DNA from: Azolla caroliniana
Lineage: Eukaryota; Plantae; Polypodiophyta
Assembly (NCBI GenBank): GCA_043228905.1
Contig: JBHGNT010000002.1
Location: 930,001 to 994,000, forward strand
Length of the DNA stretch: 64,000 nucleotides
Direction of reading: 5' to 3'
Shown: piece after piece, positions 3,938 to 34,449 of the stretch
Layout of the letters: each line of letters opens with the position of its first letter
Numbering within the stretch: the stretch's first letter is position 1
The notes under the pieces: generated by a model
Database searches by the model: none
The model's input: the letters and a program-made list of their open reading frames with translations, nothing else
Told to the model about the DNA's origin: nothing
Position numbers and translations under genes: made by a program

Positions 3938-3938
3938 C

Positions 3939-4187: not shown

Positions 4188-5541
4188 ATATGGACAGTTC
4201 TTATAATTTGGTGTCCTGGAAAATCTCCTCGTGTATATTCTTGGCAATTCAAACGTAGTTCCATTTTGCTATGTTCCATTTTGAGCAAGATGGAATGGGA
4301 ATTGGCAATTCAAAAGTTGTTCCATTTCGTATATTGTTATTACAAGGTCTTAATTATAGTATCCTTCTGCCAATGTATATGATATATGTAAAATATCCAT
4401 GTTTTTTCAATTTTTTCGTCTACTTTTCATGGTTTCAAGAAATTGTATCGAAGAACAAATAAAACATGCCAGTCTTATGTTTTGCCATACAAGAAACAAA
4501 TTGCCATATTACATCGCTCAGCAGCAAATTATGTTTCTTCATGCTTGAACCAAATGTATTGCTGTGTTTTTTGCTACTGTTCGTTCATCAGCCCTCTTCA
4601 TGTAAGGAACATTGCTTGAATGTTTCTATGCTCCTGAATTGTAACTTTCTTTAGCTCATAAGGCTATAGCAATACCATGTAATTTCATTCATGAAGGTGT
4701 CCAGCAAATGTTTGATTATATTTCAAGTTTCACATCGTACCATTTAAATTTGGGTAATCAGTCATTGTGATCTTTCAATTTTGCTTTTGACTTGACCATT
4801 TTGCTGCGAAAGTCTTTACTATTGCAATCTTTACTAATACAAATCAACAATAAAGAAGTTAACTTCCTAAAAAGCAATTTATAAAACAAAAAGGCTATAC
4901 AAGTTGATTCTCCCAAAATAAAAACATTACGTCCTCATCTCCCAAAACATTACAGATTGAGGACCTAGCTTATCATACAAGATTTTACTACTACAATTTA
5001 ATATGACAATTATATGTAATGTCTTATCCAGCTGGCTTAACTGGTTTCCCGTTGATACATCAAATAACATGGAAATGCAACTACACTAAAATAGGCTTCC
5101 ATTGCCTCATAAAATAAGCTATACATCCAATTGTTTGTAATGCTAAGGTAGCGTTTTCCCATACGTTAATGGTAAGAAAATATCAGCTTTGCATTCTAAA
5201 TGAGGTCACAGCTTCTTGTACGTGTTAAGACATTGAAACCGAACCTGGCCAAAAACAATAGTATGAGCTGATGCAGCACATAAAATGAACATTGACAACA
5301 ATTTCATAGTAAAGAAAATGAAACCAGACAGCACCAGCACAACATTGCTTATATGCACAATAGCTGCATGTATGAAAATGGTGAAGCATATGCCATATAA
5401 CCTTTCAAAATATGAGAAAGCTGGGCCCGAGCCGTTGCAGTGCTCTAATGTAAGCCAAACCTAATAAACAAAACAGTTATGCCATCTCAAGAAGTTGTCA
5501 TATGCTACACGAGGACTAAGTCTGGCATTGGGTGAGAATAT

Positions 5542-8500
5542 CTATGAATTTTTCCGAGGACGTCCCCGTCCTCTCGTAGTGCCTTTCTTTTCAGTGGGTT
5601 TTGCCCCACCTTTCTTTGCATTACTAACTGATCCTCTTCCAAGGCCACGACCATGTCCTCGACCACGGGAGCCTTTTCCTCCTGTACGTGATGGTTGTTC
5701 TTCACTACCATCACTTGCATCACTATCAGCATCATCATCCTCCACTGCATCATCATCATTATCACTATCACCATCATCACTATCGTCAGTTTTCTTTATA
5801 TCTTTCTTCGTGGGTCTTCCTCGAGGCTTTTTTTTAGCAGGGGCTTCTGATGCTTTCTTGGGCCGCCCTCTGCGTTTCTTTTCACCATTTTCTGCACCCT
5901 TCTCCAGAGCATCACCATCTGAATCTTCTGCTGCTCCTTTCTGCATTAGACTGTTTTTAACTGCAAAGCATTCAAGCAGTGTCATAGGGATCTATTGAGA
6001 AGAACAATTTTCATAATGGTTAAATTGAGATGTGTTCAACAAAACTAGGGCATACCTTCAGGGAGCGGATTACCTTCAAAGACCTCAAGCTGTCAAAAGT
6101 CAGATCATAATTAGTCTAAGTCAATTCAAACTTCATGTTTTTCAGCAATAAACAGATAAAACCTTTTCAATTTGATCCTCGAATCCTTCTGTTTTCACGA
6201 CAATCAGTGAATGCCCAACCCCACAAGCAACACTAGCCACACAAACAGGAAGGTATTAAATATCAATTTCCGCCCACAACACTTGACTCAAAATACCCTC
6301 GCAAACATTTTTCAATAGCATTGATTAAATGTATCTTCTAGATGTAAATATGTACCTGAAAACATTCATGCCCTCTAAAGTGTCTACTTTCTTAGGATTA
6401 GCTGATGACCTGCCAAAAAACAGAAGAAGAAAATGTTGGCCAGAGCTCAAGTCTACTGGAATCAACATACGTGCAAGAAGGGTATAAGATCATATACTTT
6501 GGACCAGTGGGGCCGTAGCCAAGTTCACCATATAAGGCTTGTCCCCAACTTATGCAGGATGTCTCAGCACCAACAAATGTAGTCTTCTCGCCACAATCAA
6601 TACAATGAAGAGCCCACCCACTGTTTTCATGTGGGATACAAAGAAAAACCAGAATAATGAGAACAAAATATAGTTATTGACTATCAAGGAACAATTAACA
6701 TGAGAATATTCTCTGTGCTCACCTCATGTCATAAACAGGTTTAGGATACATCCAACTGTCTCCAGTTGTCTTCACCCTTCCCCACATGTATAGCTGCCCG
6801 CCTACACCCGTACATGCTGAATATGCAGAGCCAGCTGCAATAATTGCTGTGGGCGGTAACACATTTTGCCGCTGAAAATGCTCTATCGCACGTGGACTAA
6901 ACTCATCTTTCTGCTCTTTGTGGCCAAGCCTATAAGCCAATTTATACATCAAAATGAAATCAGAATATTCTTCTGTGTTCAGTAATTTACTTCCTTTCAT
7001 TGTAAAAAATCATTGCACAAAATCCTTCTTTCCACCTTCCAAAGCCTCCAAATCCCCACCTGTTGCCGGATTAACATGGGAAATACTAACATTAGGCTCC
7101 AATCCAAAAAGAAGGACAGGAAATCATAGAGCAAGAAGCTTAATGAAGGAGCATACGTGTAAACGAAGCCATTTGAATCAACAGCAACTGCAATATGTCA
7201 ACACAAATAATGCAATATGTCATTGGAAAGGACACAATATCTTAAGGACTTCTAGTAAAGTATCAGCCAGAAAGATACCAACCAGAGTGATTGTTTCCAC
7301 ATGCAACTTTGACAATAGTTTTTTCTGTAAGCGTTGCTATGGCTTTTGGTCGAGGCTGAGGCTCAAATACAATTTTCACAGAGCTATCCCTAGCATTGTA
7401 CTGGCAAGAATATTCAACATTATATTGAAATTTAGAACCAAGAAATTTCCTATATATGTCTATAAATAACCAATTCTGTAGTTAGTTTGAATGTGTTCTC
7501 ATGAAACGTGGTATAGAGACACCACAAATAAACAGCATAAATGCAACATTCCTTCACACTAATGATGAAAGGGGGTTGCTAGCATGGCCTTTATACCTAT
7601 AGAGGTTGGTTCCGCAACTTATCAGTCAGGCTACACGATAAAGTGCCATATTTTCCTGAGTACATAGCCCCCCCAGTTTCAAGTCTAAATCATTTATTTT
7701 TATATCAAGCAATTATTCACTCTTGTAGAGCTCCTAGAAAACATTTACCTCATTGTAGTTCGAATACATGAAGTTTAATTGAAACTCCGTTATGTTGCCC
7801 ATGCTTGACTTGTTTCATTGAAAGCTTAGAGCTTCAATTATTGTATACTTTAAACATTATGATTTTTTGGTGCTCGTAAATTTATATAATATGAAGCACA
7901 ACAACTGCATATAAAGACATAAATATACAAGGTTGAAAAGAATGAAACAGCAAACTGATGATGGTGAAGACTTCAAAAGTATAACATGAGAGTGGTCAAG
8001 AACTACAGTCAAAACTCCTATGAGCATTATTCTGAAAATATTAGCTAACATTCACCTGATTATCCGATCCATGGCCAAGTTGTCCATATTGAGGCAAGCC
8101 TGCACTTCTGCATTCAATATTACATTCAGTTTTCTTTAAATATTACCTATCTTCTTGACGAGAAATCACCAAATTCACAATGCACCGTACAAGATAGTTG
8201 CTCCTGGAATGGATGAAAGCCAAACAGTGAAATCTGAACCACATGCAACATGAGTTGCCTTGGTAACTGAACACTTCACTGGTAAGCTTTCTGCCTCTGT
8301 TATTGAACACTAGACTTCAATATCAGGACTATCGTCTATACTTAATCAGAGTTTAGGTTTAGAAAAGACCAAGATTGTACCGTTTTTTAAAGATCCAGAT
8401 CCAAGCTGTCCATGTTTGTTGCATCCAAAAGCTAAAGAATCACCCTCATCGGTTATTATTACAGAATGGTTCTTCCCAGCTCCTGCTTTTACAACTTTAT

Positions 8501-9932
8501 ACCTGCGTTAAACCACAATAAGAATTCCCATGGGACCACTAAACTCATTAATATACATATGCTAACAAACATTTACTCACTTCGCCAGAGACGCAACTAT
8601 CATTGGTAAGTCCCTCGTTCCAAAATCACCATGTCCTAATTGCCCCTTCTGCTAATTTAGACTGCATGAGTCATTATTTCCTAGTTTTCCACTCTAGAAA
8701 TGCCAGTATAAGCAACACGTTACCTCATTCCTTCCCCATGTAAAGCATCGGCCATCCACATCCAAAGCAATACAGTGACAAGACGCTGCAATTTAGCAAA
8801 CTTCCATTAAAATTTCTAACATGCCAAGAGGCAAAGATATGCTCTAAAAAGTTCAAGCATTTGAAGAAACAAATGGTTTAAGGTCATTTTCTCTATAAAA
8901 ATGAGACATTTACCTTCGGACTTGATGCTACTGTATACCATGCAAACCGACTGTCTAATGGAAAATTTTTATAAATACATCAACTAAAGAAAAAGTGAAA
9001 TATTTGGGAGACTCGCCACTTGTCTTGACCCTCACGTATGTATCATATCATTTTCACTGAATTTGTTCAAATTTTTTTACCCTTGTGAACTGTTTCTCTT
9101 TACTGATTTACCTAGTAGCATCAATTTCAGTTTGTATATGAAGGATAAAGTTGTAATAAATATGACCTTCAAGAAACATACACAACAATTTGAGCTGTAA
9201 GCTACTAACTCGCCACTATTGTTTTTTTTTAAGGACAATCCTGCCATTCAATCACGCACCACAATTTGGGAGCAGTATTCCAAACATCAACAAAATTTAT
9301 TTTCACAAACACGCATATATATATACATATGCATACATTTTTTCAGGGGACGAGGGAACTTCTTAAACAAAATGAAAGATAAGCTTTAGTTATAGCGTTA
9401 CTTGTAAGAGAGTTCTTAAACGTTATTGTTTTTCATATTGATGAATACATAGTTCATGTGACCATCAGGAATGCGATTGCAAGGAAGTAAGAGCCAAACC
9501 CTAACCCTAACATTAAAACCAGGCTGATCCCTAAAACCTAGCCCTAAGTTTTAAAGTTAAAACCAAGCTTTAAATACAACCGTAGCCCCCAAAACCAAAA
9601 TTCCGGACAAACCCCTATACAACCTAACTTCAAAGCCCTAAATAACCTAAACGTCGAAGACTGCGTTTGTGTGCAGGAAAAAGTGAACGAGAAGAAGACG
9701 AACATATATACATGCTTTAATCAGATAATTAGAGGGAAATGTCGGATAGCTGACCTGATCCAGAAGCTACGAAGGTAATCGGGACACCGACGAGGGGACG
9801 GAGGCGAGCAGGAGAGGGCAGCAATGCAAATCCCTCCAGAGACCTGCTTCGCCCGACCGAATCCCAACCTGTGCTCCCACACATGAGGACCTCACCCCAC
9901 TCCTTCTTCTCTTCTTCTTCTTCGCAAGCCAT
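5542..9932 (-). CDS. RCC1-repeat protein, RCC2-like, with acidic tract and AT-hook-like GRP motifs in the C-terminal tail
   Basis: Many short GT-AG exons give GEVLMCGSTGWD, HCIALDVDGRCFTWGRNE|KGQLGHG, SAGLPQYGQLGHGSDNQ, IVKVACGNNHS|VAVDSNGFVYT|WGFGGFG|RLGHKEQKDE and GQLYMWG. The last exon encodes KRRGRPKK, KPRGRPTK and RGRGRPRK. Confidence 0.88.
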
Positions 9933-10370
9933 GGCTGAAGAGACAAGCAGCTCCTTTACTTACACCGCACTGCTTACGTCTCCTTGTCCCTTGCCTGTGT
10001 CTTCTCGTCGACCTTGGAGCCGTTGCTCGTTCCTGCAGGTCTGTTTTTGCAGGCGATGGAGGGAGAGAGCTGCTATTTAAAACTTAGTTAGGGTTTTGAA
10101 ATATTAACGAGAAACGAGATCTGATAATATACATACATAACAGACACGCAAATGAAAAGCTTTTATTTGCTTTTTGCTGTTTTAAAACAAATCAATACAA
10201 CAGCAACACACTCACTCACAAGCAAGCAAGCAAACAAACAAACAAACACACGCTACACAAAAATAGACCAAAAAAAAAGGCGCGCAATAAGAAGAAGAAG
10301 AAGAGGTCAATTAACTTAAAAGGAAAATGATGTTATTATTATACATATATGTGCGTATGCATACATACAT

Positions 10371-14791: not shown

Positions 14792-14845
14792 TTCCTCTAG
14801 CCTACTTGTCACTCTCCCTCATCCTCCTACCCTTTTCCCTATACT

Positions 14846-16002
14846 ATGGCTACTGTTAGCGCCCAAGAATACCAATCCGTTTTCTCCGAGCTACAGTGCC
14901 TAAAAGAAAAGTTTGTTGCCCTGGAACAAGAAAACCAACGGCTGATAGGGGATCTGCAACAAATCGCTCTAGAAAAACAACAAACGCAACAACAACATGG
15001 GGAGTTAGCGTTACGGGTACAACAACTCGAAGCAGCGTTGCAACAACAAGGATCCAGTCCCCAAGGATTTCATAAAGAGCCCAAATTGGACTTCCTGTGA
15101 AATTTGATGGAACGCGTTCGCAATTCCGGGGATTCCTTAATCAGGTACGCTTAGTCATCCAGATGCATCCTTCCCGATATCCCACTGATGCATCTCGAGT
15201 CGGCCTAATAGGCACGCTACTTAGCGGCTCAGCCTTGGCATGGTTTGCTCCGCTTCTAGAAAAACAATCACCCTTACTTAATAACTTTGAAGATTTTATT
15301 GGTGAGTTTAAAGCCTGCTTTGGAGACACCGACAACATCAGGACGACGATCAACAAGATCCGGCGATTGCGTCAAGGCGATCGTCCAGCCTCTGCCTACG
15401 CGGCGGATTTCCGCCTACTTGCTTCAGATATACCCTGGGATGATCAAGCACTAATGGAGCAGTTTCGCTATGGCTTGCGAAACGATGTCAAAGATCTACT
15501 TCTAACTTTCCCCGAAGAACCAAAGTCTCTTACGGAGGCAATCAGTCGAGCAGTTCGATGTGAGAACCGCCTTTTTGAACGACGTTCAGAACGTCAATTA
15601 CAGATACCACGCTCTAGGCCAGAGCCCACTTACGCCGCAGTCGCGGCTAAACCGTTTGCACGAGACATACCTCAAGCAAATACTTCGACACCGATGGAGA
15701 TCGATACCATGCGTCGACGCGGCCCGTTATCGGAAGAAGAAAAGCAACGACGACGTGCCAATCGATTATGTCTTTATTGCGGTGGACCAGGACATATCGC
15801 CATCAATTGTCCCCATAGGCCAAGAAGACAGGTAAATCAAATCGTCGCCTGTACTAAACCCGAGTCAATTCTTCCCTTCGGAGTGTCTGATAGTATTAAT
15901 AGTACTAATAGAGTGTCAGATAGTATTCATAGTACTAATAGCCCAATTATCTCAAATAAATTTGAAATCCTTAGTCAATTAGATGAAGAGTTAAACGATT
16001 GA
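14846..16002 (+). pseudogene. gag: Gypsy gag (coiled coil, capsid, CCHC knuckle) with 1-bp deletion near 15085
   Basis: ORFs 14846-15100 and 15097-16002 form one ORF in copy B (44941-46098). CLYCGGPGHIAINC. Confidence 0.9.
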
Positions 16003-16044
16003 GTCCAGCCAAAATAGGAGCCATTTGGTTGGACAACAGCCCTA
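15990..16044 (+). promoter_or_regulatory. Putative -1 ribosomal frameshift signal (G_TTA_AAC plus H-type pseudoknot)
   Basis: pol is in the -1 frame. Heptamer 15990-15996, 6-nt spacer, stem GTCCAGCCAAA/TTTGGTTGGAC (16003-16013/16024-16034), and the loop TAGG(A)GC can pair with GCCCTA (16039-16044). Conserved in copy B. Confidence 0.78.
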
Positions 16045-19000: not shown

Positions 19001-19571
19001 GGAGAGGCTACGCAAGATCCAGATGGATCTCTCTACTCACCTTCGTCATGCTCAACACACACAGAAGACTTATGCGGATCGTCATCGGTTTCCCTCCTCT
19101 TTTGCCATCGGAGATCGAGTATGGCTCTTACGTCGTCACATCAAGACTACTCGACCGTGCGACAAGTTGGATTATCGACGACTCGGTCCTTTCCGTATTA
19201 CGGGGAAGATTAATGATGTCACCTTCCGCCTGGATCTCCCTCCGCAGCTTCAGATACATCCGGTTTTTCATTGTTCTCTTCTTGAACCTTATAAAGCAAA
19301 CACCATTCCCGATCGTGTGACACCACCGCCGCCCCCGCTGGAGTTGGACGCCGGCCCGGAATATGAAGTTGATGCCATCCTCGATTCCAAACTTGTTCGC
19401 AACAAACTTTATTACTTGGTCGATTGGCTTGGTTATAGTCCGAGCGAACGTACTTGGGAACCCGTCGAGAATGTTGCCAATGCACAAGATCTTCTTGCTG
19501 ATTTCCACCGAAAGTATCCGGACAAACCCCGTCCGCAATTAGCGCCGACTCGTTCTACTCGTCGTCTTTAA
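15999..19571 (+). pseudogene. pol: Gypsy pol (PR, RT, RNase H, integrase, chromodomain) with stops at 16938 and 17793
   Basis: LLDSGA, YLDD, ADASD..YEIHDKELLAIV, HHCC zinc finger, SDRGPQF, QTDGQAER and YLVDWLGYSPSERTWEP (chromodomain). All three ORF pieces are in one frame. Confidence 0.93.
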
Positions 19572-19991
19572 GGGGGAGATAGTGTCATGGCAAGACTCGA
19601 ACCCATGACTTTATGCTACATGGGTCGAGCTCTTACCATTAGATTATGAATTGTATTTTGTAGGATATTATTTTCATTTATACTTTATCATAGAAAATTG
19701 ATGTATATTCCAGATCTCTCTGGAACATTCTAGAAGCTTCAGGATTATTCCTAAAAACACTATAAAAGGAGGCACAAGGCATTGTTTTGAACCAAATTGG
19801 TTCAACGCCAGTCTTAAGCCTCTTAGCCGCTTGTACTTATCTTTTCACATAATATATAGCTGCTGTCATCATCTCTCTCTCTCTCTCATTCTCGCTATCT
19901 CTCTCTCTCTCCTCTTCTCACTTCCTCTCTCGGGAATCTTACGCAGTCTCGTCGTCTTAGTACTAATAGTACTGCTGTTCTTAGTACTAAT

Positions 19992-22900
19992 TGTTGGGGA
20001 CAAGGTCGTCAATGCGGAAGATCAAGAAGCATTCGATTGCTGTTGAATACCTGCGTATGACAGTTTCTAGGTCGTTGCACAGAGAGAGAGAGAGAGAGAG
20101 AGGCACAAAAGACTCTTTATTCCACAAAGCAATAATACAACACCCAACCTTACAAAAAGGTTACAAGGTCACTATATATAGTGACCGACTTAGGGCAACT
20201 ACCCTTTATGCTAATTACATAAATGGCCAAAACGGGATAGTGTGAATACGTCCATTATACACATGTATTCGACACTCCCCCGTAATGGGCGTATACATGG
20301 GTTATCTTAGATTACAGGTATAGACTTAGGTTCTCGGACATATCAGCTTTGTTCGAGTCGGCAGGGTCCGAAGGCAGAAGACCGAACTGGTCGGGTCGGA
20401 ACAGTTGAAGCCGATCATTAAGCAACTGATGTAAGTTGTCGGGAACCATCCTGCTCTGTGTCCGGCTCTAACCGGACTGGTTTGTCGTTACGCCCATCTG
20501 ATGCCGAAGAGACCGAAAACGGTCTGCCGAAAGACACTTGGTCATTCCATCTGCGACATTGTCGGTTGTGGATATTTTCTCTAGACCGATTTTCCCTGAA
20601 ATGACGCAGTCCCGAACGAAGTGATATCGAACATCGATATGTTTGGAGGCGTTGTGGTGAACCGGATTTTTCGACAAGGCAACAGCACCTTGACTGTCGC
20701 TGTAGACAACTGGAGCTGAGTCATGGTCGACTTGTCGAAACGTGTGCGCCAGCCGACCGAGCCACAAAGCTTCTTTTGCTGCGTCGGACGCAGCTACATA
20801 TTCTGCTTCGGTCGTTGAGGTCGCTGTGCACTCCTGAAGTTTCGACTTCCACGAGATTGCTCCATTGCCGAATTTGAAGCAGTATCCGGTTGTTGATTTC
20901 CGACTGTCTATACAGCCGGCGAAATCCGAGTCGGTGTAACCGACTACGCCTGAGGTTCGGTTCGGACCGAAAAGAATGCTGTGGTCTTTTGTGCCAGCCA
21001 GATATCTGAACACATGCTTGACTGCGTTCCAATGCGATCGGCCAGGATTGTGCATAAATCTGCTAACGACTCCTACGGCGTGAGAAATATCAGGCCGTGT
21101 CGCGACCATCAGGTACATAAGGGAGCCGACTGCCGGTGCATACGGTACCGACTTCATATCTTCCCCCTCCGAACCGGATGTCGGGCAGTCTCGCTGAGAG
21201 AGCCGAAGATTCATGGGGAGCGGGGTTGAAGCAGATTTGGCTGATTGCATGTTGAAGCGTTCCAAGACACGTCCGATATAGTCGGTCTGAGACAAAAAAA
21301 GATGTCGTTTATCGCGATGCCGACTGATCTTCATGCCAAGGATGTGTCGTGCCGGACCGAGGTCCTTCATGGCAAACTTCAACCGCAGTTGCCGAACGAG
21401 ATCGGCAAGTTCGCCCGCGTGGCGTCCAGAAATTAGCATGTCGTCCACGTAAATGATGAGGAAGATGGGTGATCCATCTTGAGCTGTGTTGGTGAAGAGA
21501 CAATGGTCCTCATCGCTTTTGGAGAAGCCGATCGATTGGATGAAGTCGTCGAACTTCTTGTACCATTGTCGTGGTGCCTGTTTGAGGCCGTATAGACTCT
21601 TCCTGAGTCGGCAGACTAGATGTTCTTGGCCAGTTGCCACGAAGCCTTTTGGCTGCTCCATATAAATTTCCTCTTCAAGATCACCATGGAGGAAGGCTGT
21701 TTTGACATCTAGCTGAATCAGCTCCAAGTTGTCGGCTGCCACTACGCCGAGTAGGAAACGAAGGGTTGTCATTTTCACCACTGGTGAAAAAATCTCGTCG
21801 AAGTCGACGCCATATTCTTGTCGGAAGCCCTTCGCAACTAATCTGGCCTTGTACTTTGGGGTGGTCGAATCATACGTCTCTTTTAGTCGATAAACCCACT
21901 TGCAAGGAAGAGCACGTCGGTTCCTAGGTAATTCGACCATATCCCAAGTCTTGTTTGCCCGGATGGAGTGCATTTCCGACTCCATCGCCAGATGCCAGGT
22001 GGTTGAATCGACAGATGTCGATGCTTCTTTGTAAGACGTCGGTTCGCCGGCGTCGGTGAAGAAAATTCCAGGAGAATACCTCTCCGGAGGTTGCGACAGT
22101 CTCTCGGATCGTCGAGGTATGATTGGACTGGTCGCATCGGGTATCGAGGTCGGATGGTCCGAAACCGAATCATTCGGCTGTGCCGAGTCAGAGTTGTCCG
22201 AGTCGGTAGTGTAAGGTTCAGCTACCCGTGAAGCTGACCGTGTGTTGAGAGCGGGGCCTTCTTGAAGGGTCGGCACATCGGAGAATGTTACCCTTCGGAC
22301 TTCGATCGGTTTTTCGACTGATGGATTCATAGCCGACTCGTTGAACACAACGTCCGAACTTCGAACGATTTGTCTGCGTTCGGGGTCCCAGAGTCGATAT
22401 CCCATTTCGCCGTCTGATCCATATCCAAGGAAAATGCATTTCCTGGACCGAGGTGCAAGTTTTCGGCGATCATCTTTCGGAATGAGGGCGTACGCCTCGC
22501 ATCCGAAGATCCTCAGCTTGTCGTAATTCGGCTTACTGCCGATCCATAGTTCCTGAGGAATTTGAAGTCCTAGAGGTCTACTTGGCGACATATTGATTAT
22601 GTGTACTGCCGTGAGTAGAGCCTCTGCCCAGAAGCCATCCGACAGTCGGGAGTGTTGGAGCATGGAAACTATCCATTCTTGGATTGTCCGATTCATTCGT
22701 TCTGCAATCCCGTTTTGCTCCGGACTGTGTGGTGCCGTAAATTCACGTCGGATGCCGCGTTGTCGGCAGAATTTGACGAATTCTTCGGATTTGAACTCTC
22801 CCCCATTGTCTGTCCGAAGGCATTTCAGCTTTCGGTCGGTTTGATTTTCTACCATAGCGAGCCAATCGGTGAAGATCGAGAAGACACGATCTTTGGTGCG

Positions 22901-25438
22901 AATTGGATAAGCCCACACCTTTCGAGTCGAATCGTCAATAAAACTGACGAAGTAGGAGGCACCGCCTAGAGACTGATGCAGCATTGGGCCACAGACGTCC
23001 GAATGGACTAAATCAAGAGGTCTCGTTTCTCTTGGTGCTGATGTCGGGTGTGATGCGGCTGCTTGTTTGCCATACTGGCAATGCTCGCAGAATTGATGGT
23101 CGGAGAAGGAGAGTTTGGGGATGTATCCGGCTCTAGATAGATGCGTGATGCCGGCCTGGCTAAGGTGTCCTAATCTTCTGTGCCATAGTGATGACACAGG
23201 AATATCCACCAAAAACAGGTTACCCTCTCTGAGCGTAACATGTAACGGATACAGGGAGTGTATCTTGGGTCCTCTAGCAAGCAGGAGGTTCCCCCTGTGG
23301 AGTGTCCACCCTCCCGAAGAAAAACCGGCACGAATGCCGTCTTCATCTAGTTGTCCGACTGAGATCAATGGCCTTGAGAGCTCGGGTACATGTCGGACAT
23401 TGTGAAGTACAAGTGTAGAGCCACCTGCAAGGTTGAGCTCTACTGTGCCGATTCCGATGATGTCACAGTGTTGTGAGTTGCCGACTCGAACTGAGTCGGA
23501 GTGACGGATCGTATATTGCCGAAATTGTGATCTATGAGGAGTCACGTGAAATGACGCGCCCGAATCCAAGAGCCATGTGCTCGATTCTTCAGTCGTGAGC
23601 AGAACTTCGGATCCGACTGGATTTTCGATTGACAGTATATTCGGGTCGTCCGGTAGTACATCAGCCGAGAAGTTGACGTAATTGATCTCCTCATGCCGGC
23701 CACTCTTCTTGTTGTTCTTGTGCTTGAGTGCGCGGCAGTCGGCTTTGATGTGTCCGGGTTTCTTGCAATAGTTGCAGATTCGGTTATCCCGTGACTGGCT
23801 CCGTCTTCCCTGATTGTTCGGCGGCCGTGAGGAATCTCGTCCTCGTATGTTCGATCGGTCTGTTGAACCTTGCACTACATAAGCGTCGTCTGTTGAGTCT
23901 TTGGCGAAAGACTTTCTCCGAGCTGCTTCGGTCAGGATTGCGCTCGTGACTTCGGAGTATTTAACAACCGTGGTTGACGCGTTGCACACGGTTGTGACGA
24001 AAGTTTCCCATGATGAGGGAAGGCTACTCATGAGTATCATTGCTCTGAGTTCATCCTCGATTGCCGTCCCCTGTGACGAGATTTGGGAGCTTATGCTTTC
24101 GTACTCATTGAGGTGTGCTTGAACCGAGTCGGATTCTTTCATCCGCAAGTTATAGAGGCGCCGGATCAGAAACATCTTTGTTGCGGCGACCTTCTTTTCG
24201 TAAGTGTCCGACAGTGTTTTCCACAGTTCGAATGCTGTCGTACACGATTGCACCGTAAAGTATACCGATTCCGATAGGTGCATCCGAATCGTGGCGCGGA
24301 CGATTCTGTCCAGCTTTTGCCACTCAATTGGTTTGTATCCTTCTGGAGGTTCTTCATTTTCGATGGGATCGATTTGCCCCTTGACTATGAGATAGTCCTG
24401 CATTTGTTCCTTCCAGAAGTTGAAGTTCGATCCATCGAACTTGCGTAGACTCATTTCTGACGAGCCGGATGTTGATGCCATCAAATTTGGTTTCGGTTGA
24501 CGGAGCTCGGTTCGGAGTTGACTACGAACCTTGTTGGAGTGCAGCCGGTTGGCTCACCCGATATCGTTCTAGTCGGATTTGAACCCGAGTCGGTTCGGCT
24601 TCGGAACTTGCTCGAAATGACTCCGGTAGCTTGAGGGACAGAACCGACTGGTCTTCCCGAATGTTGCCGAGTCGGAGTGAGCCCGGTTCGCTTCGGATAT
24701 ATATGCCGAATACCGATTATTGAAACCGATTATCTGGACCGATTCTGCTTCGGTTGACTGCAGCAACGAGAGAGACGGATCCAACTGATCCTCCCGAATG
24801 TCGATAAGCCAGATGAAGCACGAATTTGGGGTTGTTGTCTTAAGACCGATCTGCACCGAGTTGTTACAACGAGCAACGAGCAGCGTTTAATGACCTTTTC
24901 GGATGCCGTTTAACCGAATGGAGCACGATCGTGTCAATGATGCACAAGGGGATTTCACCTCGAGCGGTTACGATCACAAGGAACAGAGTACAACCTGATG
25001 GCTTACTCCAAGCAAGAGGATCTAACGCGATGAGGTGCAAACCTCGTTTTTGTTCTTCTTCTCTCTTTCTTCGAATGACGCGAGGAAACCGAATGCTGAG
25101 ACGACGGCCGACAGCGGATCGAAGGACCGACTACTGTGCAGGCTCTGATACCAGATGTTGGGGACAAGGTCGTCAATGCGGAAGATCAAGAAGCATTCGA
25201 TTGCTGTTGAATACCTGCGTATGACAGTTTCTAGGTCGTTGCACAGAGAGAGAGAGAGAGAGAGAGGCACAAAAGACTCTTTATTCCACAAAGCAATAAT
25301 ACAACACCCAACCTTACAAAAAGGTTACAAGGTCACTATATATAGTGACCGACTTAGGGCAACTACCCTTTATGCTAATTACATAAATGGCCAAAACGGG
25401 ATAGTGTGAATACGTCCATTATACACATGTATTCGACA
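19992..25438 (-). mobile_element. Ty1/Copia element 1, intact, nested in the Gypsy A 3' LTR
   Basis: LTRs 19992-20274 and 25156-25438 (283 bp, no differences seen). TSD CTAAT. tRNA-iMet PBS TGGTATCAGAGCC at 25141-25153. PPT next to the left LTR. Confidence 0.97.
20468..24484 (-). CDS. Copia gag-pol polyprotein (1338 aa, uninterrupted)
   Basis: CNYCKKPGHIKADC, WLLDSGAS, HSDVCGP..TDNGGEF..AERMNRT, QLDVKTAFL, YVDD, YTDSD..TEAEY, KHIDVRYHF; integrase precedes RT. Confidence 0.95.
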   Translation of the reverse strand: MMASTSGSSEMSLRKFDGSNFNFWKEQMQDYLIVKGQIDPIENEEPPEGYKPIEWQKLDRIVRATIRMHLSESVYFTVQSCTTAFELWKTLSDTYEKKVAATKMFLIRRLYNLRMKESDSVQAHLNEYESISSQISSQGTAIEDELRAMILMSSLPSSWETFVTTVCNASTTVVKYSEVTSAILTEAARRKSFAKDSTDDAYVVQGSTDRSNIRGRDSSRPPNNQGRRSQSRDNRICNYCKKPGHIKADCRALKHKNNKKSGRHEEINYVNFSADVLPDDPNILSIENPVGSEVLLTTEESSTWLLDSGASFHVTPHRSQFRQYTIRHSDSVRVGNSQHCDIIGIGTVELNLAGGSTLVLHNVRHVPELSRPLISVGQLDEDGIRAGFSSGGWTLHRGNLLLARGPKIHSLYPLHVTLREGNLFLVDIPVSSLWHRRLGHLSQAGITHLSRAGYIPKLSFSDHQFCEHCQYGKQAAASHPTSAPRETRPLDLVHSDVCGPMLHQSLGGASYFVSFIDDSTRKVWAYPIRTKDRVFSIFTDWLAMVENQTDRKLKCLRTDNGGEFKSEEFVKFCRQRGIRREFTAPHSPEQNGIAERMNRTIQEWIVSMLQHSRLSDGFWAEALLTAVHIINMSPSRPLGLQIPQELWIGSKPNYDKLRIFGCEAYALIPKDDRRKLAPRSRKCIFLGYGSDGEMGYRLWDPERRQIVRSSDVVFNESAMNPSVEKPIEVRRVTFSDVPTLQEGPALNTRSASRVAEPYTTDSDNSDSAQPNDSVSDHPTSIPDATSPIIPRRSERLSQPPERYSPGIFFTDAGEPTSYKEASTSVDSTTWHLAMESEMHSIRANKTWDMVELPRNRRALPCKWVYRLKETYDSTTPKYKARLVAKGFRQEYGVDFDEIFSPVVKMTTLRFLLGVVAADNLELIQLDVKTAFLHGDLEEEIYMEQPKGFVATGQEHLVCRLRKSLYGLKQAPRQWYKKFDDFIQSIGFSKSDEDHCLFTNTAQDGSPIFLIIYVDDMLISGRHAGELADLVRQLRLKFAMKDLGPARHILGMKISRHRDKRHLFLSQTDYIGRVLERFNMQSAKSASTPLPMNLRLSQRDCPTSGSEGEDMKSVPYAPAVGSLMYLMVATRPDISHAVGVVSRFMHNPGRSHWNAVKHVFRYLAGTKDHSILFGPNRTSGVVGYTDSDFAGCIDSRKSTTGYCFKFGNGAISWKSKLQECTATSTTEAEYVAASDAAKEALWLGRLAHTFRQVDHDSAPVVYSDSQGAVALSKNPVHHNASKHIDVRYHFVRDCVISGKIGLEKISTTDNVADGMTKCLSADRFRSLRHQMGVTTNQSG

Positions 25439-25479
25439 CTAATTCCATCTATGTTTTAGTACTATTCCTGACAGTACAT

Positions 25480-25915
25480 ATATCAACTAATTTAAGCATT
25501 GTGATTATTCCCACTACATGATTAACTCAATCTATTTATTGAGTAAATCAATGCAACTAGCCCATCGTGTGACCATATTACTGACCTACCAATCTATCTA
25601 TCCACTAATTGAAGCACTAAAATAAGTCCATCTATCCATTCGAGTAAAGCAACGAATCTATCTGAGTAAGGCACATTGCAATTAGTCCATCCATCCCTTC
25701 GCCATATATTGATCCATCCATCCATTTACCTATCTATCTATCTATCTATCGGGTACAACACTTCGATAAGTCCATTGAGCTATCTATCTATGCGAGTAAA
25801 GCAATCAATCTATCCAAGTAAAGCAATGCAATGCAATTTGTCCATTTGTCCTGCCATCTATCCATGTATCCGAGTAAAGAAATGCAAAATTAGTCCATCT
25901 ATGGCATATTATTAG
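25480..25915. repeat. Degenerate tandem/simple-repeat region (gagtaaagcaatgcaattagtccatc-like units, (TATC)n)
   Basis: Repeated gagtaaa..aatgcaa..agtccatc motifs and tatc runs upstream of the GTPase gene. Confidence 0.5.
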
Positions 25916-26262
25916 TGAAGGAGTGAGATTTGAACCCTTGATGCATGCATGGCATGGCAGAGCAGAGCAGAGCATGGGGGCGGGGGGGGGGGTGTTGATC
26001 GATAAGAATGGAAACATGTGTTCATAGTAGCAATCACCTTCCCTTTCAGGAAGAAAGAAAAGAAGAGGAGAGGAAGAAAGACAGACAGGTGACTGAAAGA
26101 AAGAAAGAAAAGGCAGACATGGAGGAAAGAAAGAGAGACAGGTGACGGAAGAGGAGTGGAAGAAGAAAGAGGAGGAAAGAAGAATCAAGAAGGAAGCGAA
26201 AGGAAGAAGGAGAAGAAAGAAGAGAAGAAGAGGTCTTCTGAGAGGCAGAAAGAGAGAAGAAG

Positions 26263-28923
26263 ATGACAGCAGAGCGATACCTGGAGCGGCAAGCAAAGCG
26301 AAGCCGAGTGACTATACCTACCCTCACACCATTAGACTTCCAAGACATACCTCTCCGAGATGCCCCCTCTGCCTTCCGAGCCCGTCTCCATGCCATCCTC
26401 CACCAAGAAGAAGAAACTCTAAACCTAGACAAAACCCTGTCCCATGACCGATCATCTCCGGTGCCTTCTTCACTGGGAAGGGTAGTGTTTAACAGCTTCA
26501 ATGCACCCAAGTTTGATACTTCCTTGGCCCCTCTCGGCCTCGACCACCCACATGCGGCCACCATCATCGGAAGCTCCCAACAAGGTAAGACCACATTGCT
26601 GAACTCTTTGCTGAATTTATTCGGTTTCCTTTACCCTCACCCAGTTTTTCCTGATATCAACCTCTTACCGACCCATACCCATGGCTCCGTGGGATTGCCT
26701 TTCCCACTCCGCCTTGAATATGGCCCGAAATATGAGATTTTTCTTCAAAGATGGAAAGCTTCAAACCTAGAGAATGTCATGTGTAAAGTGGTGGAACGCT
26801 TGCTTGCCGAAAATTCCGACTTTTTCAAAGATTTGGAGGTTGGTTTGGAAGAGGTGACATCTGGCTCTTTCCTAGAGTTTGTTGCAAAGCATCGCCACTC
26901 AGATGAAGAGTGCAGCACTAGGTCTATTCCTCATGAAAATGAGGGTTCCAATGATCACAATGACAATGAGGCTAGGTGTAGTACATCCTCCGAGAAGAGT
27001 TTAAACTATGCTGACAACTCTAGGTCTAGTACATCTTGTGGGAACCAGTGTTTAAATGATGATGAGGATAGGTTCTACTTTCCTAGTCAATCTGCAATAG
27101 AGCATCTGAATGCTGATGGGGGTGTTGAGCACCATGATTTCTCTTCAGTCGAAGAGCATGTCCACCAAGCCATCCAAGACTTCCTCGTCCACCTCGTCGA
27201 GGATTCTCGATGGTTCCATTATGAGAGAATCACTCTCAAATGCCCCTCACAGCTCCTGAAATACCTCAAATCAGAGATAGTTGACACTTACATCCTTGAC
27301 CTTCCCGGGGTTGGAATTGTCGATGATAACAACTTGCTTGTAGAAGAGCTAGTTCTCCGAGATATGATGGAAGCAGCCACTGTCATTATCCTTACTGGTG
27401 AGCGAAGTTTTACTCATGATGTCATACGGGTTCTCAAGAATTCAGTCTTTGAGAGGCTATTAGACCCTTCAGTGGTTCCAAGGCCGACCGTTGCTATCAC
27501 TAACTCACGGAATCTACGAGGTCTTAAGGAGGAGGAGATGGAACAATGGCGTTCAGCCACTTTGAATGGGAATTTAGGGTGGAATACAGAGTTAAAGGCA
27601 TTTGCAAATGATGCCTTCTCGGGAAGAAGACATCGAGAGATTGAAACCCTCGAACCAGATCTGTTTCCGAATGATTTGGAAGGCTTTCTTGATTCTAAAA
27701 AAGGGTCGTGTGAAAAAGGTGTGTCGAGGCTTGTTGGATACCTCTTAAGGTTACCTCAAGAGGCTTTAATAGCATTGGTGGGAGATGTATTGGACCGAGC
27801 AAGATCAGTAATGGGTATGGTTGACAAGCTATGGCAAACTGACAGTGTCACGTGGCAGGGATTGCGGTCGTGTAGATTGAAAAAAGAAATCAAACAACTT
27901 AGAGATGAAGAGTTCAAGAGGGATTTGGATGCTGAATTGACGATCACAGCTCAGAGGAATTTTTTCGGCTTCGAAATGGCGGTGACAGCTACATCATCCA
28001 AAGCGGGATTCAAATCCTTGGAGCCGCAGATGCATTATATGGAGGAACTTTTCCGGGAACAGAGATGCAAACTTTCTGATCGGCTCAAAATGATGAAACC
28101 TGGAAAAAGCAACCCAAAGCAAGAAATTACCAAAATGGTTAAGGAGTCTCTTCTTCAGATTGCCTCTCAGTGGGATGAAAATGTTGGAATGAAAGCATTT
28201 AGGCAGTTCTTATATCATGCTCAAGAGATAACCAAATCCTTATATAGGAGGTGGGCGAGAAAGCTTTTTCTTGGTGGGAAAAGGGGTTCTAAACAGGATG
28301 AGAAACAAGAAAGGGCATACCAGTTCATGGTCGACTACCTGATAGCATCTGCCACTGATGTGATAAGTGAAGATAATTTTAAGTATACTTTAACGCACAG
28401 CTTCCGCCAACATGCTTGGAACCTAGACCTTAAGGATTTTACGAAGATGGGGTTAAGAAAAGGCCGCTCAACATTGCTAGCCATTGGTCAAATAGAGGTT
28501 TCTATGCAAACCATATTGAAAAGCAAAGAAGTTTCTTTTAAGGAGTGCATGCAAGAGCACATGTCTCTACAATCTGCATCAATTCAAGAACTTGTCCGCC
28601 TTTTGAAACGAATCATATTTGTCACTTTTGAAGACTGTGAAAAGAATTTTGGATTGGTGATGAGTGCATTGGAGAATATTGCAAAAGGGAAACTAGCGAT
28701 TAATGATGATCCTGTTGTTATTTTGCGCAAAGATCTTGAAGCATTGGCAAAATGCATTGAGAAGTAAGTTCCTAGATTGTTTCAGTTGTGTTTACATATC
28801 GGTGTTTGTTTTTTGTGTGTTTCTGATTCCCTTGAATTATGCAGGTATCTTGGAAATCTCAAAAAAAAACGGGATATCTTTGGTGCCGAGGAGCTGAAAA
28901 AGGTTCTTCAAGCTCACTCTTAA
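26263..28923 (+). CDS. Divergent dynamin-superfamily large GTPase (NUGGC/SLIP-GC- or bacterial-dynamin-like), ~859 aa
   Basis: 2.5-kb exon with IIGSSQQGKTTLLNSLL (G1), NLLPT, ILDLPG (G3), VAITNSR (G4 position) and a long helical C-terminus. Predicted intron 28764-28844 (GTAAGT...TGCAG) adds YLGNLKKKRDIFGAEELKKVLQAHS*. Confidence 0.7.
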
Positions 28924-30764
28924 GTTCAAGTTTGAAGCATTGTCTATGTAATGCTGGAGACATATTTTCACACTGGTCTTTGGTGACATTGATATCAAAC
29001 GCTAGTGTGAAAGTATGTCAGTTCATGGCTCAATATTGGACATTGACTCAAGGTGCTTCACCCCTTGTGTATTTTTGTTTATATGTAACATGCTTAATTG
29101 TGGGTATGTTGACTCTTAATCTTATCGCTTGTCTAACATATTTTGGTTTACAATACATGTGAAAAGACTTTGAGGATATTTTTCACCCTTTTTTTTCATG
29201 TCATATGGCCGATTATGTATATGCTGATCTTTTTGAAGACATTCTTCAATTAGCCTGGCTCCATGTGTATTTTTGTTTGTTCTTAACATGTTCAAATTGA
29301 TTCTAAATCTGACCACTTTCGTAACATGTTATGACATGAAAACCTTTGGAGGATACCACTCTCTGTTGATACCATCTTCATTTCATAAGCTGATTTTTTG
29401 ATGATTTATTGTGAATTGTGCTTGTGCACGTCATATTATGTGCAAATCTGAACTTGCTGAAGTGACCTTAATGCAAAAGCCCAACAATATCTCTACTTCA
29501 GGTATAAGTTAATAGAGATGGCATTTTGAGTTTCAAATTTCCCATGCGACATATATGTGGTATGTATGAATGGTCCTTCACTCTCATAGGTGATTCCTAT
29601 TGGAGTGTATGGTTTTCATATTCATTAACCCTTGTGGCAATTGAAAAACAAATTGGAGCATTTTGTCTAATTTTATCTGCTGTAGAAGTAGTAGAGTAGG
29701 CACTTCATATCATTGAGGATGTAGAATGCATGTGTGCTATAGGACACAGGTGCAATTTGCATGACAACTTGGAGGCCTATTTTAATACATTGAAGTGCAA
29801 GCCTTGTAATCTCTTATTTTCTGACTATCGCATGTGGCAAACTGTATCACTATTGTTAATTTGTTACTACATTGATATTTCCATATGTGTTTATTCATGT
29901 CCAATAGAAAAGCGTAAAGCTAATGGCACAGTTTTTGTAAGCTACATGTAATGTATTACAATACATTGAGATATTCACCTTATCTCATGTTTCTTAGTGT
30001 GTTAAAATTTCCCGCACTGTGGCAATCCACATTTGACTACTGTGAAAATATTAATTACTATGCATTTCCATATACTTTTATGAGACTGATTAAAAGGAAG
30101 TGGCTTTGAAATCAAGAAGTCAATGGATCATTCATACTCTTGACTTATTTCATATGTTAGTGCATTGAATCATTATATGCTGGAATCACGTGAAATAATT
30201 TTCGAAATAAGATTGTTTTGGATTTAAATAAGTGCATTTAAAATTGTGTTTGCCACAAAAGACTACCTTAGCAAGTGGTTGTGTAAGGTTGTAAAAACGT
30301 GCCACCTTTGATGTTAAATAAAAAATCAACATGACAAATACTGTATATTTAGAGATTACAAATGACCCCTCTGATATAATGACAAAGCAATGATCTATGA
30401 AGAAACTATAAATATAGTAAGATAAACTGGATGAGCAGAGCTTAATGAGCAATGCAAGAGAAAAAAATTCATTAAAACAAAGCTGTAAAGCAAATCCATT
30501 TGCACACATACATGTGCTACTACTACCCCACAGCAACACAAAGCATTCTAGTTCCTTCATAAGAAATCAAATCACATCAAACTTTTGTGATCAGTTAAGT
30601 GGGTGGCAAGAAGCACATTATGTGGGTTCGTTGGGAGGTTAGACCAAAATGATACAAGAATATTATAAAACACATGCAATCCATTATCAAAACCTATGAT
30701 TTAGAGTCACCTATTTCATTGTTAGAAAATTACTCATAAATAAAACTTGTCAAAAACCAATCAA

Positions 30765-31152: not shown

Positions 31153-33945
31153 TCAGATCCTAACTGTAAGAATCTCACAATTATGCATTCTTTTACGTCT
31201 ACCACTCAGTTCCTGCATACAAATTTCAACATCTTATATGTATACTCTTACACTATCTCGCACACACACACATACACCCACATTTCATGTACTTATACTT
31301 TATCTAGTATGTATACTAAATGTAAATGTATAAATAAAACGTGGTTTAACAAGGACACAGAGAAAAAGCCTGGTCTTTTACATCCATCCCCAATGACAAT
31401 GAAAATTTAACTATATATGTCCCAACCCTCACATCTATCTATCATCCGAAAGGCACCAAGATCATATGTCAAAAAGAACAAAAGATGAGAAAAGAAAATG
31501 CACTAACATGAATAGGAAGTATATAAGAAGGTGTTCCCTACCTTGAAGAATGTAGAATGGCCAATGACAACAATTCTGGTTTCTGGTCTTGAAAGAAGAT
31601 ATTGACGAAATATACCAACTCGTTTTCTTAAGTGATCTGAAACACACACATACACACACACACGATGTTTAAATTCCAAATTTTACTTACATAGCATAGC
31701 TTCTTCATTAGCATGTTGCAAAACAATTACCCATGCTTTCTCTGCTCTGAAAGATTCCCTTCAAGGGGTCATTTGGAGCATGTTTTGGTGAGAACCACCA
31801 TGTCTCTTCAATTCCAATGAAGGATAGCATTGGGAAGTCTCTTGAAAGCATCTGAATGAGCAAACAAATGTATATATACAAAACGAAATGCTCATAATCT
31901 CTCAGATTATACACACTTACACTGATTGGTCTGCCCACATCTCCACTGTTGAAAACATGCTCTGAGTGAAGATCAGAAACCTCAATCGGACAAGCATTGG
32001 AGCTCTACAAGGAAAAGAAAACTGTTGTGATTGCCAAATAATCACAAGTCACACAATTTTCCTGCATACTATATATCCAAAGAGAGATTGTAAAATATTG
32101 CATATAGATTATAATTCAGAGTATTATAAATTTGGTACCATATCCAATGTGTTTTTCTAGTAGGCATGTGTTGATCCCACTATCTTAATTACAAATTTAA
32201 CCTAATAAACATGGTCAATAAGTTAAAACATGTCGAAGGCTATATCTTACTCTCCACCCAACAGTTTCTAACATCTTTGGCTTTAAAATGCTCGTTCTAA
32301 TGTTGAGCTGCAAGGTTACTTTTCACCATGATGAAACATTCAAAATCTCCAAAGCTATCAAAAGAAACTTAATATGATCATAAATATTGATCACGATATA
32401 TTGGGTACACTTTACATAGAAAAGACAGGTCAGTAGAGACACACGTTCATCATGATATTGGGAACACTTTACATAGAAAAAACAGGTCAATAGAGAGATT
32501 TAATGCCCAGGATTACTCACACACGATTAAAAAAAAACTACTTTACATACAGAGATTTGTTCAATAGAATATATTGAAATAAATTATTATTTCAAATTCA
32601 CCTGTGCCAGATCAACTGCATTTTGAAGTGTCTGTAATGCCCGCGTCAAAGGTGATACAATGATCTGCATATTTGGGAATCTTTCAGCATATACATCATT
32701 GCATTTTATCCCTTTGAAGGATTTTAATACGGAAATATGGTTCTTACATTTCTTTTTTATAAATTTCCTTTCATCATTTTTGGCCTCTCAATCAATAGAC
32801 ATGAGATGAACTTACCACTTGGGCTTCAAGGCAAAACACCTTACTTTTCAAAGCAATAGCCTGCATGTTTATATAATCAGTTGAAAATGCATGAAGATTA
32901 TGATAGAATCATCACAAGGTGCTGTAACCTGTTGGATGCCAGTTGGAGATATGATAACATCGAAAGGATGATTTCCTGGTTTCGTTCTGAAATAACCCTC
33001 AGTGTATGTAGTATGCCCATGACGAATCAGATGCACAATCTGCAAAAACTAATAGGCAATGAGTAAGGGGAATTAATCTAGAACCTGATCGTTCAAATAA
33101 ACCAGGTATTTATGCTTAAAATTATATACATGTTGAAGATGTGTCTTAATCTAAACGATGTTAGGTCTTATGGCGTTTCCATGTAATATTAAAGCCATTT
33201 ATTTCAGCTTCCTTTGATCATCTCTCATATATATAAATATGAAGAACTAAAACCATGTTTGAAATGCGTAAGATTTTGATGGTGTGGTAGACCATAGTAC
33301 TTCAGTAAGTTCTATGTGGGAACCATTTTTCCCTATCAAAATAGTTTATAAACCATAATGTTCAAGGATATGCATAATGCACTCCCTTTGGAACTAAAAT
33401 CAGAAGGAAAAAATTTAGAGTATATTGTAAGAACCACATTTCACTACGTTATAAAAAGATTCTTCCATCATAGAAATGCAATGATACATGCACTCCTTTT
33501 ATTGAATAAATATCACATAAATGATGATAGAATAAAAAGACATAAACGGACATAGACTCTGTAAGAAACAAATTTCTTACACCACAAAAATGGAACGATA
33601 TATACACTCCTTTTCGGGGATTAAATACCACATAAATGATGATAAAAAGGATGTGACCTTATGCAGGAAACAGATTTCCGCATATTAAAAAAACATTCTA
33701 GATCATATAAAAAGCATGCATTCCTTTTGGTGATTGAACATCACATAAAATGATGAGAAGAAGAAAAAGAGAGTGTACATACCTTCTTCTGTCTATTGAA
33801 TAAAGAAAACAACGGAGGTGGACGAAGCGAAAGATTCTGTTAAAAAAGGAGGGGAAAAGAAGATGAAGATGATGGATTTGTTCAATGTTCGGGGAAATGA
33901 TGAAAGAATCACCTGAACTCTGTTATCCGCTTCATCTTCCGCCAT
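31153..33945 (-). CDS. Histidine phosphatase / phosphoglycerate mutase-like protein (~205 aa, 9 exons)
   Basis: Phase-consistent GT-AG exons: 33945-33913, 33788-33783, 33039-32929, 32860-32816, 32664-32602, 32004-31921, 31851-31731, 31636-31542, 31212-31153. Motifs IVHLIRHG, IIVSPLTRALQT, SRES, IVVIGHS and MHNCE. Confidence 0.88.
33450..33765. repeat. Intronic degenerate tandem repeat (~110-120 bp, about 3 copies)
   Basis: Recurrent cactccttt...aa.a.cacataaatgatga blocks. Confidence 0.5.
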
Positions 33946-34449
33946 GGCTTGTCTCTCTCGATGGAAACTAAACTTCAAATCATTTCTGTCTCTCCATTAC
34001 TACAGGTGTACACAGACACACATACAACAACTTGTGTATGTGTATGACATATTCGCATTCGTGGGGGTTACCAAACGAATGTATACAAATACGTATACGA
34101 ATGCATGAAAAATATTCGTTAAAAAGAAAAAAGAAAAAAGAAAAAAAAGAGAGTTCATAAAGTCCATACCTTTTAGTCTCTTAGATATATCATATAAGTT
34201 ATAACAAAGAGGCCATTGACAATAAAAAGAGAATATTTTACTTCACATTCAAAAGGAAACTTAGACTAATAATATTTTTATAATAGATATAAAACTTAAA
34301 GAGTATTTGTTTTATTTTTAAAACAAACTAAATAAATAATAAACAAAAGGTTCATTAATTTCCCACTTTTTACTCTCCCACAAAATTTGATATTTTTATT
34401 CATCATTAAAAAGGGCACCTCACACTAATAATATTTTTATAATAGATAT

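Follow-up and report, generated by a model that had tools for sequence, protein, structure and literature searches.

Plant dynamins have been catalogued from flowering plants, as membrane-acting GTPases. Among the systems that come closest to the gene treated here are the following. SynDLP, a KGK-clade dynamin-like protein of Synechocystis (PDB 7zw6 and 9em9; PMC10104851), is a lipid-binding GTPase of ~800 amino acids (aa) with a bundle, a stalk and an enlarged G domain that carries an insert between G2 and G3. BDLP of Nostoc carries a G4 Asp, and sequences at the tip of its stalk insert into membranes. EHD is an ATPase within the dynamin superfamily, which retains the G4 Asp and took a different switch route (PMC5084822). 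SpoIVA, a polymer-forming TRAFAC protein derived from Era, prefers ATP about threefold, and its G4 has changed from K to S/T and from D to K/H/N/R (PMC7952092). Here we analyzed a gene in a stretch of 64,000 nucleotides from the fern Azolla caroliniana (contig JBHGNT010000002.1, positions 930,001 to 994,000; "the window" below). It represents a real and conserved family in seed-free land plants that derives from dynamins, has a rebuilt nucleotide pocket and is apparently undescribed.

According to the list of open reading frames and their translations, the ATG at 26263 opens an 834-codon frame on the plus strand, closed by a stop at 28767. The observed stop-free frame spans 841 aa, compared with at most 194 aa for the longest one among 200 shuffles of positions 25001-30500. 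In a preliminary description of this DNA the frame had been taken as uninterrupted. The frame itself is real, but a spliced intron precedes a second exon (Table 1), and the product comprises 859 aa. Exon 2, which ends at 28923, the end coordinate given for the gene before, supplies a C-terminal helix that is present in all relatives. The intron is absent from the contigs of four of seven sequencing runs (X2, X13, X6 and X7); among the pieces listed for X1, X12 and X9, none extends to the splice junction. The contigs of the runs fit transcripts, since they carry the spliced joint and cover only ~26185-29300 around the gene; no run is on record as RNA, and this status is a guess. In genome assembly G000 the protein matches a single locus, its own.

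A protein search at the level of 90% clusters (7,992 candidates scored) revealed five relatives, and a profile search returned the same five. By BLAST identity these are an unnamed Logan protein (55%), proteins of Pteridium aquilinum (52%) and Adiantum capillus-veneris (50%) and, more distant, of the lycophyte Diphasiastrum complanatum (40%) and the liverwort Riccia fluitans (38%). A full phmmer search over 1.84 billion representatives gave eight hits and added Adiantum nelumboides, another Logan protein and three pieces of one 4,758-bp Logan contig; no seed plant, bacterium, fungus or animal was among the named hits. The gene, described before as orphan-looking, thus has orthologues at 38-55% identity in seed-free plants. 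Two of the seven full-length relatives were hidden behind fragment representatives in the search database. Because relatives can hide in this way, the lack of a hit does not show that any one species (among mosses and hornworts, or Marchantia or Ceratopteris) is without the gene; the case for its absence from flowering plants is stronger, as a whole series of genomes would need to be hidden simultaneously. From the sequences, orthologues appear common to ferns, lycophyte and liverwort, and seed plants have apparently lost the gene.

In a midpoint-rooted tree of the eight full-length rows (fragments, P0007 and P0016 excluded), Riccia branches first, then Diphasiastrum, followed by a clade of six rows (94/99, drawn open) that contains the window protein, Pteridium and both Adiantum species. 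The gene tree follows the species order, which places the window protein among the ferns. The ratio of replacement to silent substitution rates (dN/dS) was 0.27 over 281 codons in the comparison with run X13 (p = 4e-4, from 19.5 replacement and 17.5 silent changes) and 0.31 against L168 (271 codons; p = 2e-4), a close relative and the sole confirmed stretch of 198 in a metagenome pattern scan. By region, dN/dS against L168 was 0.15 in residues 96-213 and 0.69 in residues 1-95. We are all but certain that this is a spliced gene of the host, old and passed down vertically, on which purifying selection acts.

The most divergent relative is the Logan contig in three pieces (P0011, P0012 and P0013), which is 26-37% identical outside the core and has Gly as the P-loop's third residue and Ala in G3. 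It would be an intron-split gene or a pseudogene, and could date the family.

A dynamin-superfamily fold is predicted by four partly independent methods and is very probably correct. Pfam Dynamin_N matches six of six members, though weakly (best member E = 8e-4), and a profile-profile comparison with 16 fetched dynamin-like G domains gave a probability of 88% (E = 3e-6) for a match spanning G1-G4. In the ESM Atlas two members fall among Dynamin_N clusters, both SLIP-GC-like and bacterial, with scores of 0.96-0.97, and all of the ten best named hits belong to one family or clan. For the lycophyte protein, its model in the Atlas has template-modelling (TM) scores of 0.45-0.59 against Dynamin_N clusters. 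Foldseek was run with AlphaFold models of the window protein and of a second member. SynDLP was the best match for both (E = 9.5e-9 and 3.7e-8, respectively) and BDLP the second (E = 2.2e-8 and 6.1e-7); the first eukaryotic hit was Drp1 (E = 3.5e-6 and 6.9e-5). Each row listed for the window protein is a dynamin-superfamily protein, and the top matches of both models belong to this superfamily. In VIA the G domain matched SynDLP with Z = 11.8 and a root-mean-square deviation (rmsd) of 5.9 A over 231 residues, Fzo1 with Z = 10.4 and MFN2 with Z = 10.2. The stalk matched that of MxB with Z = 9.2 and 9.8 and an rmsd of ~4 A over 181-187 residues, a match that is weak by itself because such Z values are common for helical bundles.

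The low-confidence models place an N-terminal G domain of at least ~300 aa before a helical bundle and stalk, the architecture of the dynamin superfamily. The predicted plan runs from an N-terminal helix through the G domain with its large insert, a long helix and a four-helix stalk to a C-terminal helix that folds back. Indeed, the C-terminal part is predicted to be all-helical, as had been noticed from the sequence before. Some results weigh against the assignment. For the window protein itself Dynamin_N stays below the Pfam cut-off (E = 0.08), both AlphaFold models are weak (mean predicted local distance difference test score, pLDDT, of 58 and 61; predicted TM-score of ~0.4), and whole-chain TM-scores of the Foldseek matches are below 0.2. 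Searches of PDB sequences with the protein and with a six-row profile returned no dynamin and nothing under E = 0.3, and NCBIfam and PADLOC scans gave weak matches at the level of the P-loop only.

The insert in the G domain is missing from distant relatives, and measures ~20 aa in L168 (395-1231) and ~52 aa in the window protein. To judge from these sequences, it evidently grows through in-frame indels inside one lineage. An interpretation of the 52 aa as an intron was rejected, as contigs read through it and L168 differs by an in-frame indel.

How does the family compare with the described systems? SynDLP shares the bundle, the stalk, the size and the enlarged G domain with it, but identity is ~10-12%, without a match at the sequence level. 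The distance from G1 to G3 is 175 residues in three SynDLP-like cyanobacterial proteins, which we take to be members of the KGK clade, and 195-243 in the plant family; in these cyanobacterial proteins the G2 Thr is retained and G4 reads NRxD, unlike in the plant proteins. With BDLP and other bacterial dynamin-like proteins the family has in common an extended P-loop (GK[ST]xxLN[AS]LL), the L-P motif before switch I, an xLxYG strand and the DxPG layout; it lacks both the membrane-inserting sequences and the G4 Asp. On the eukaryotic side, MxB, Drp1 and dynamin share the superposable stalk, the third P-loop Ser and, following switch I, a PLxL strand; two further motifs, LGW and GVSxL, align with a fungal dynamin. 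The TRRP switch I and the TKxD motif of these proteins are missing from the plant family, in which no PH domain or B insert was seen. The DRP1/3/5-like genes of the same genome are many-exon loci elsewhere that keep canonical motifs of the TRRP/TKxD type. TbMfnL (bioRxiv 2023.06.28.546890) is a different family with transmembrane segments, reported there as absent from plants.

The preliminary description had grouped the protein with NUGGC/SLIP-GC and bacterial dynamin-like proteins, apart from plant DRP1-5, FZL and RHD3. The separation from the plant proteins holds: no characterised plant dynamin was among the hits, despite Dynamin_N loci in the genome, and the best description is a dynamin-superfamily NTPase of its own. 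For a specific kinship with SLIP-GC there are observations on either side. The animal and fungal nuclear GTPases of the NUGGC/SLIP-GC type are the top Atlas feature hit (0.96), and they resemble the plant protein in size, solubility and predicted nuclear site. However, bacterial Atlas clusters score equal or higher, phmmer found none of them among the 1.84 billion representatives, and DUF7605 (PF24564) gave no hit up to E = 1. For the stalk alone a DUF7605 cluster reached 0.85 (rank 29) in the Atlas. A DUF7605 search of assembly G000 gave no match anywhere, with the controls likewise silent.

Motif definitions for the nucleotide-binding site were taken from PMC5827413 and PMC5084822. All motifs quoted in the preliminary description were recovered (G1 at residues 103-110, LLPT at 134-137, GLPFP at 144-148, RITLKCPSQLL, ILDLPG at 344-349 and TNSR at 413-416), and the alteration of G2 and G4 that it pointed out extends to the whole family. 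G1 (GxxxxGK[ST]) is present in all ten members covering the site. Nine of them have Ser at the third position, which binds the catalytic cation in dynamins (PMC5084822). Lys109, Asp346 and Gly349 are invariant across the eight full-length members. G3 reads DxPG in eight of nine members (fragment P0011 has Ala) and is followed by Val in seven of the eight full-length proteins. The G2 position was located through the L-P anchor, at which the family was aligned with BDLP- and SynDLP-like proteins. Thr137, six residues before it, is invariant (10/10) and may replace the missing G2 Thr. At G4, N-S is found in 9/9 members and Asp in 0/9, whichever register is chosen. Counted from the Asn (N register), the fourth residue is N in five members, K in two, H in one and M in one, and the SpoIVA-type pattern N-[ST]-x-[KHNR] is matched by eight of nine. 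This register is favoured by the first model, where a strand ends at N414 and a one-turn helix follows (pLDDT ~50), the G4 geometry described in PMC7952092. Because the guanine-reading Asp of G4 is absent from all nine, we file the protein as dynamin-derived and not as a canonical dynamin GTPase.

An ATP-using enzyme has to be weighed against several of these data. In the profile alignment the first position of G4 falls on T413 instead of N414, and G4 lies in a stretch near or below a pLDDT of 50. The SpoIVA-like pattern depends on the N register; the Asp is missing in either one. SpoIVA keeps its own G2 Thr and requires a G5 change to an acidic third position (SxE); in the window protein G5 was not placed, and the invariant PND at 469-471 is a candidate. 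Era given NSxR and SxE hydrolyses ATP (PMC7952092); SpoIVA serves here as a functional analogy only. Finally, the canonical G2 Thr is found in two of ten members, so that the protein may bind nucleotide without hydrolysing it. Together with the lost G4 Asp this would suit a pseudo-NTPase scaffold, in which nucleotide is bound weakly or only structurally and is not hydrolysed, and the protein serves either as an adaptor with the shape of a dynamin or to hold back a true DRP. Dynamin T65A, without catalysis, still binds, and Irga6, with another residue in place of the G2 Thr, is still an enzyme (both PMC5084822). A dead site is argued against by the constraint on the nucleotide lobe: invariant positions make up 39% of residues 316-500 and 35% of 96-160, compared with 14% of the stalk, and include Lys109, Asp346 and Gly349, with Ser105 kept in nine of ten. 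We regard a scaffold as unlikely, though as an alternative to be taken seriously.

No transmembrane-like window was found in the eight full-length members (no hydrophobic window above 1.6), and models and sequences showed neither a paddle nor a PH domain nor a transit peptide. In contrast to transit peptides, the N-termini are acidic, and their conservation starts at Met1. All eight full-length proteins have a basic motif, K[KR]x[KR], at most 20 residues away from one terminus, for which chance would give 2.5-4% per protein. It is N-terminal in the six fern-clade proteins, C-terminal in lycophyte and liverwort, and unique in the scanned sequence in six of the eight. A nuclear localisation signal is suggested by this pattern. 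Three considerations reduce its weight: the pattern was picked after looking at the sequences, the six N-terminal motifs are one inherited event, leaving two or three independent cases, and in the first model the motif sits in a low-confidence helix.

The same data bear on a diverged GTPase of the cytoplasm that would remodel the membranes of an organelle or of the cell plate and in which other residues would make up for G4 and G2. All fold neighbours of known function are membrane-acting GTPases, G4 is less conserved in bacterial dynamin-like proteins (PMC5827413), and a basic membrane-binding loop may exist at the stalk tip. The negative search for a transmembrane segment, paddle, PH domain or transit peptide, the loss of the G4 Asp in both registers and a terminal basic motif that switched ends yet was retained make such a protein improbable.

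Our best reading is a soluble, likely nuclear and likely ATP-using dynamin-type polymer, to which as a whole we assign a probability of roughly 40%. Its steps differ in strength. By way of the intact G1 (Ser105, Lys109) and G3 the protein would still bind a nucleotide triphosphate, together with Mg2+ and a monovalent cation, which we consider likely. Since G4 has gone from NKxD to NSx(N/K/H/M), guanine selectivity would have been lost and the protein would likely run on ATP; by analogy to SpoIVA the balance tips towards this step. For a slow or re-wired hydrolysis, with Thr137 possibly standing in for the G2 Thr, the odds are even. Import into the nucleus by the terminal basic signal is slightly favoured. 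There the protein would polymerise through its stalk, and pairing of its G domains would be coupled to a stroke of the bundle at a surface in the nucleus, be it the inner envelope, a pore or chromatin. This picture is modelled on soluble dynamins of the MxB or SynDLP type from what is known of that family, and we lean towards it.

MxB has a nuclear location. The resemblance to its stalk, the SLIP-GC-like clusters among the Atlas neighbours and a nuclear site, which would suit MxB or SLIP-GC (the latter nuclear according to PMC12107551), could also point to an immune large GTPase of the Mx/GBP/SLIP-GC kind, directed against viruses, microbes or retroelements. The gene is present in one copy under steady purifying selection, without expansion. 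Immune large GTPases usually follow an arms-race pattern, unlike this. The best PADLOC model reached E = 0.006, and none was matched by more than two of 11 members. The suggestion of an immunity-type protein made at first inspection has found no positive support, and we rate it as quite improbable.

Regarding the origin, the leaning is bacterial in the fold scores and in the layout that precedes G3, and eukaryotic in the PLxL strand and the LGW and GVSxL motifs. When sub-profiles were scored against dynamins of cyanobacteria, of fungi and of the plant genome itself, kin of the bacterial and the eukaryotic side did not come apart. Profile searches of 1,008 prokaryote genomes revealed no close relative. 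Among 401 cyanobacteria there were six matches at E <= 0.01, all of 14-19 bits over 46-84 positions, five of them at or near the P-loop. Further prokaryotes gave 0/5, 0/301 and 0/301 genomes in searches without a positive control, tblastn against plasmids gave no match, and pattern scans confirmed 0/34 stretches in GTDB contigs and 0/63 in viral contigs. Giant-virus dynamins fit the fold about equally well (E = 1.5e-7), and because of this we claim no donor: a bacterial, a SLIP-GC-like and a diverged plant DRP origin stand side by side, and an ancient transfer into early land plants, before or near their origin, may have taken place. One speculative course of events, which we hold to be rather improbable, is that a SynDLP-like bacterial dynamin entered the land-plant ancestor, went over to ATP by a SpoIVA-type G4 change, acquired a nuclear signal and turned into a motor polymer of the nucleus. 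This polymer would reshape the nuclear envelope or chromatin in a process kept by spore-bearing plants and dropped by seed plants, such as spore meiosis or the shaping of sperm nuclei. If true, it would be the first nuclear, ATP-driven dynamin in plants.

In the full-text literature (subscription papers and supplements lie outside this scope) we found no description of such a plant family, no mention of the relatives under any of five accessions or locus tags and no co-mention of "dynamin superfamily" and "NUGGC". The family is "hypothetical" or unnamed in each record encountered, and invisible at Pfam cut-offs. The gene has been kept single-copy since the split of liverworts and vascular plants. 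If ATP is preferred, it would represent an independent switch from GTP to ATP in the dynamin superfamily by the SpoIVA route and would test how G4 sets the choice of base. If the protein is nuclear, it would offer a plant model for the role of nuclear dynamin-like proteins such as SLIP-GC. As a single-copy gene in transformable ferns and liverworts it makes the questions of fuel and location easy to test.

Table 1. Features of the dynamin-like gene and its surroundings (positions in the window).
Feature	Position	Strand	Remarks
Exon 1, coding	26263..28763	+	residues 1-834; intron splits codon 834
K-R-S-R, putative monopartite nuclear localisation signal	26296..26307	+	residues 12-15; sole K[KR]x[KR] in the 834-aa frame
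G1/P-loop, intact, dynamin-type third-position Ser105	26569..26592	+	residues 103-110
Switch I region	26665..26721	+	residues 135-153; invariant Thr137 and GLPFP; Val143 at the canonical G2 Thr position
G-domain insert, ~52 aa, lineage-specific, predicted disordered	26911..27069	+	retained in transcript-like contigs; 32 codons shorter in L168
G3 DLPG, intact, hydrophobic residue next as in dynamins	27298..27309	+	residues 346-349
G4 region T-N-S-R-N, without Lys and Asp, SpoIVA-like N-S-x-polar	27499..27513	+	residues 413-417
Long helix after the G domain, predicted bundle-signalling element	27706..27831	+	residues 482-523; from the model
Helical stalk, predicted	27871..28686	+	residues ~537-808; no transmembrane segment; from the model and the MxB stalk match
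Intron, 81 nt, GT..AG	28764..28844	+	carries the stop closing the 834-codon frame, 4 nt in
Exon 2, 79 nt, coding	28845..28923	+	25 further residues and stop
RCC1-repeat gene, multi-exon	5468..9935	-	acidic and basic tail at the end with AT-hook-like GRP motifs
Copia element, young, intact (context only)	19985..25475	-	outer long terminal repeat stops ~0.8 kb short of the ATG (limit read by eye)
Multi-exon host gene with RHG motif	31430..33950	-	~2.5 kb downstream, tail to tail with the dynamin-like gene

The preliminary description had set the gene in an island of decayed transposable elements and had proposed that it was horizontally acquired, retroposed or carried by an element. The gene lies outside every pair of long terminal repeats (LTRs) in the window, between the RCC1-repeat gene and the multi-exon host gene downstream. 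On the upstream side, a Copia element, a Gypsy element and a remnant of a long interspersed nuclear element (LINE) separate it from the RCC1-repeat gene. The adjoining Copia has LTRs that are 99% identical and an intact polyprotein of 1361 aa, and a second one in the window has an intact frame of 1382 aa. The elements are thus not decayed, and the locus is an ordinary gene neighbourhood with young insertions, in which the transposable elements are young and the gene is old. What would suit a recent orphan acquired in one of the proposed ways is the almost intron-free coding region, a GC content at third codon positions of 45% versus 32% in one neighbouring host frame, and elements flanking both sides. 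The single copy outside LTR pairs, the spliced intron, orthologues in three land-plant lineages, the tree in species order and the lack of a donor by sequence refute a recent event, and we give this explanation hardly any weight.

Both Copia frames (20468-24553 and 58960-63108, minus strand) are bounded by near-identical LTRs and are very recent insertions. Two Gypsy copies of one family (14336-19882, plus strand; 40930-46599, minus strand) are inverted and 97% identical over 4.5 kb. They lie ~21 kb apart and bracket the gene region, each with its own LTR pair (98-99% identical). The host gene at 1205-3937 (plus strand) has long exons as well, including a 527-codon frame without a Pfam match; long exons are therefore not special to the dynamin-like gene. 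Pfam gave no match for two exons of the downstream gene, whose RHG motif presumably recalls histidine phosphatase/phosphoglycerate mutase proteins.

In assembly G000 another dynamin-like frame was noticed on contig C735 (16.6 kb). The frame at 2515-4491 (minus strand) is uninterrupted over 658 aa and dynamin/Mx-like, with a deaminase-like frame adjoining it. By eye this contig looks fungal, not plant, and the assembly probably contains contaminant or endophyte contigs.

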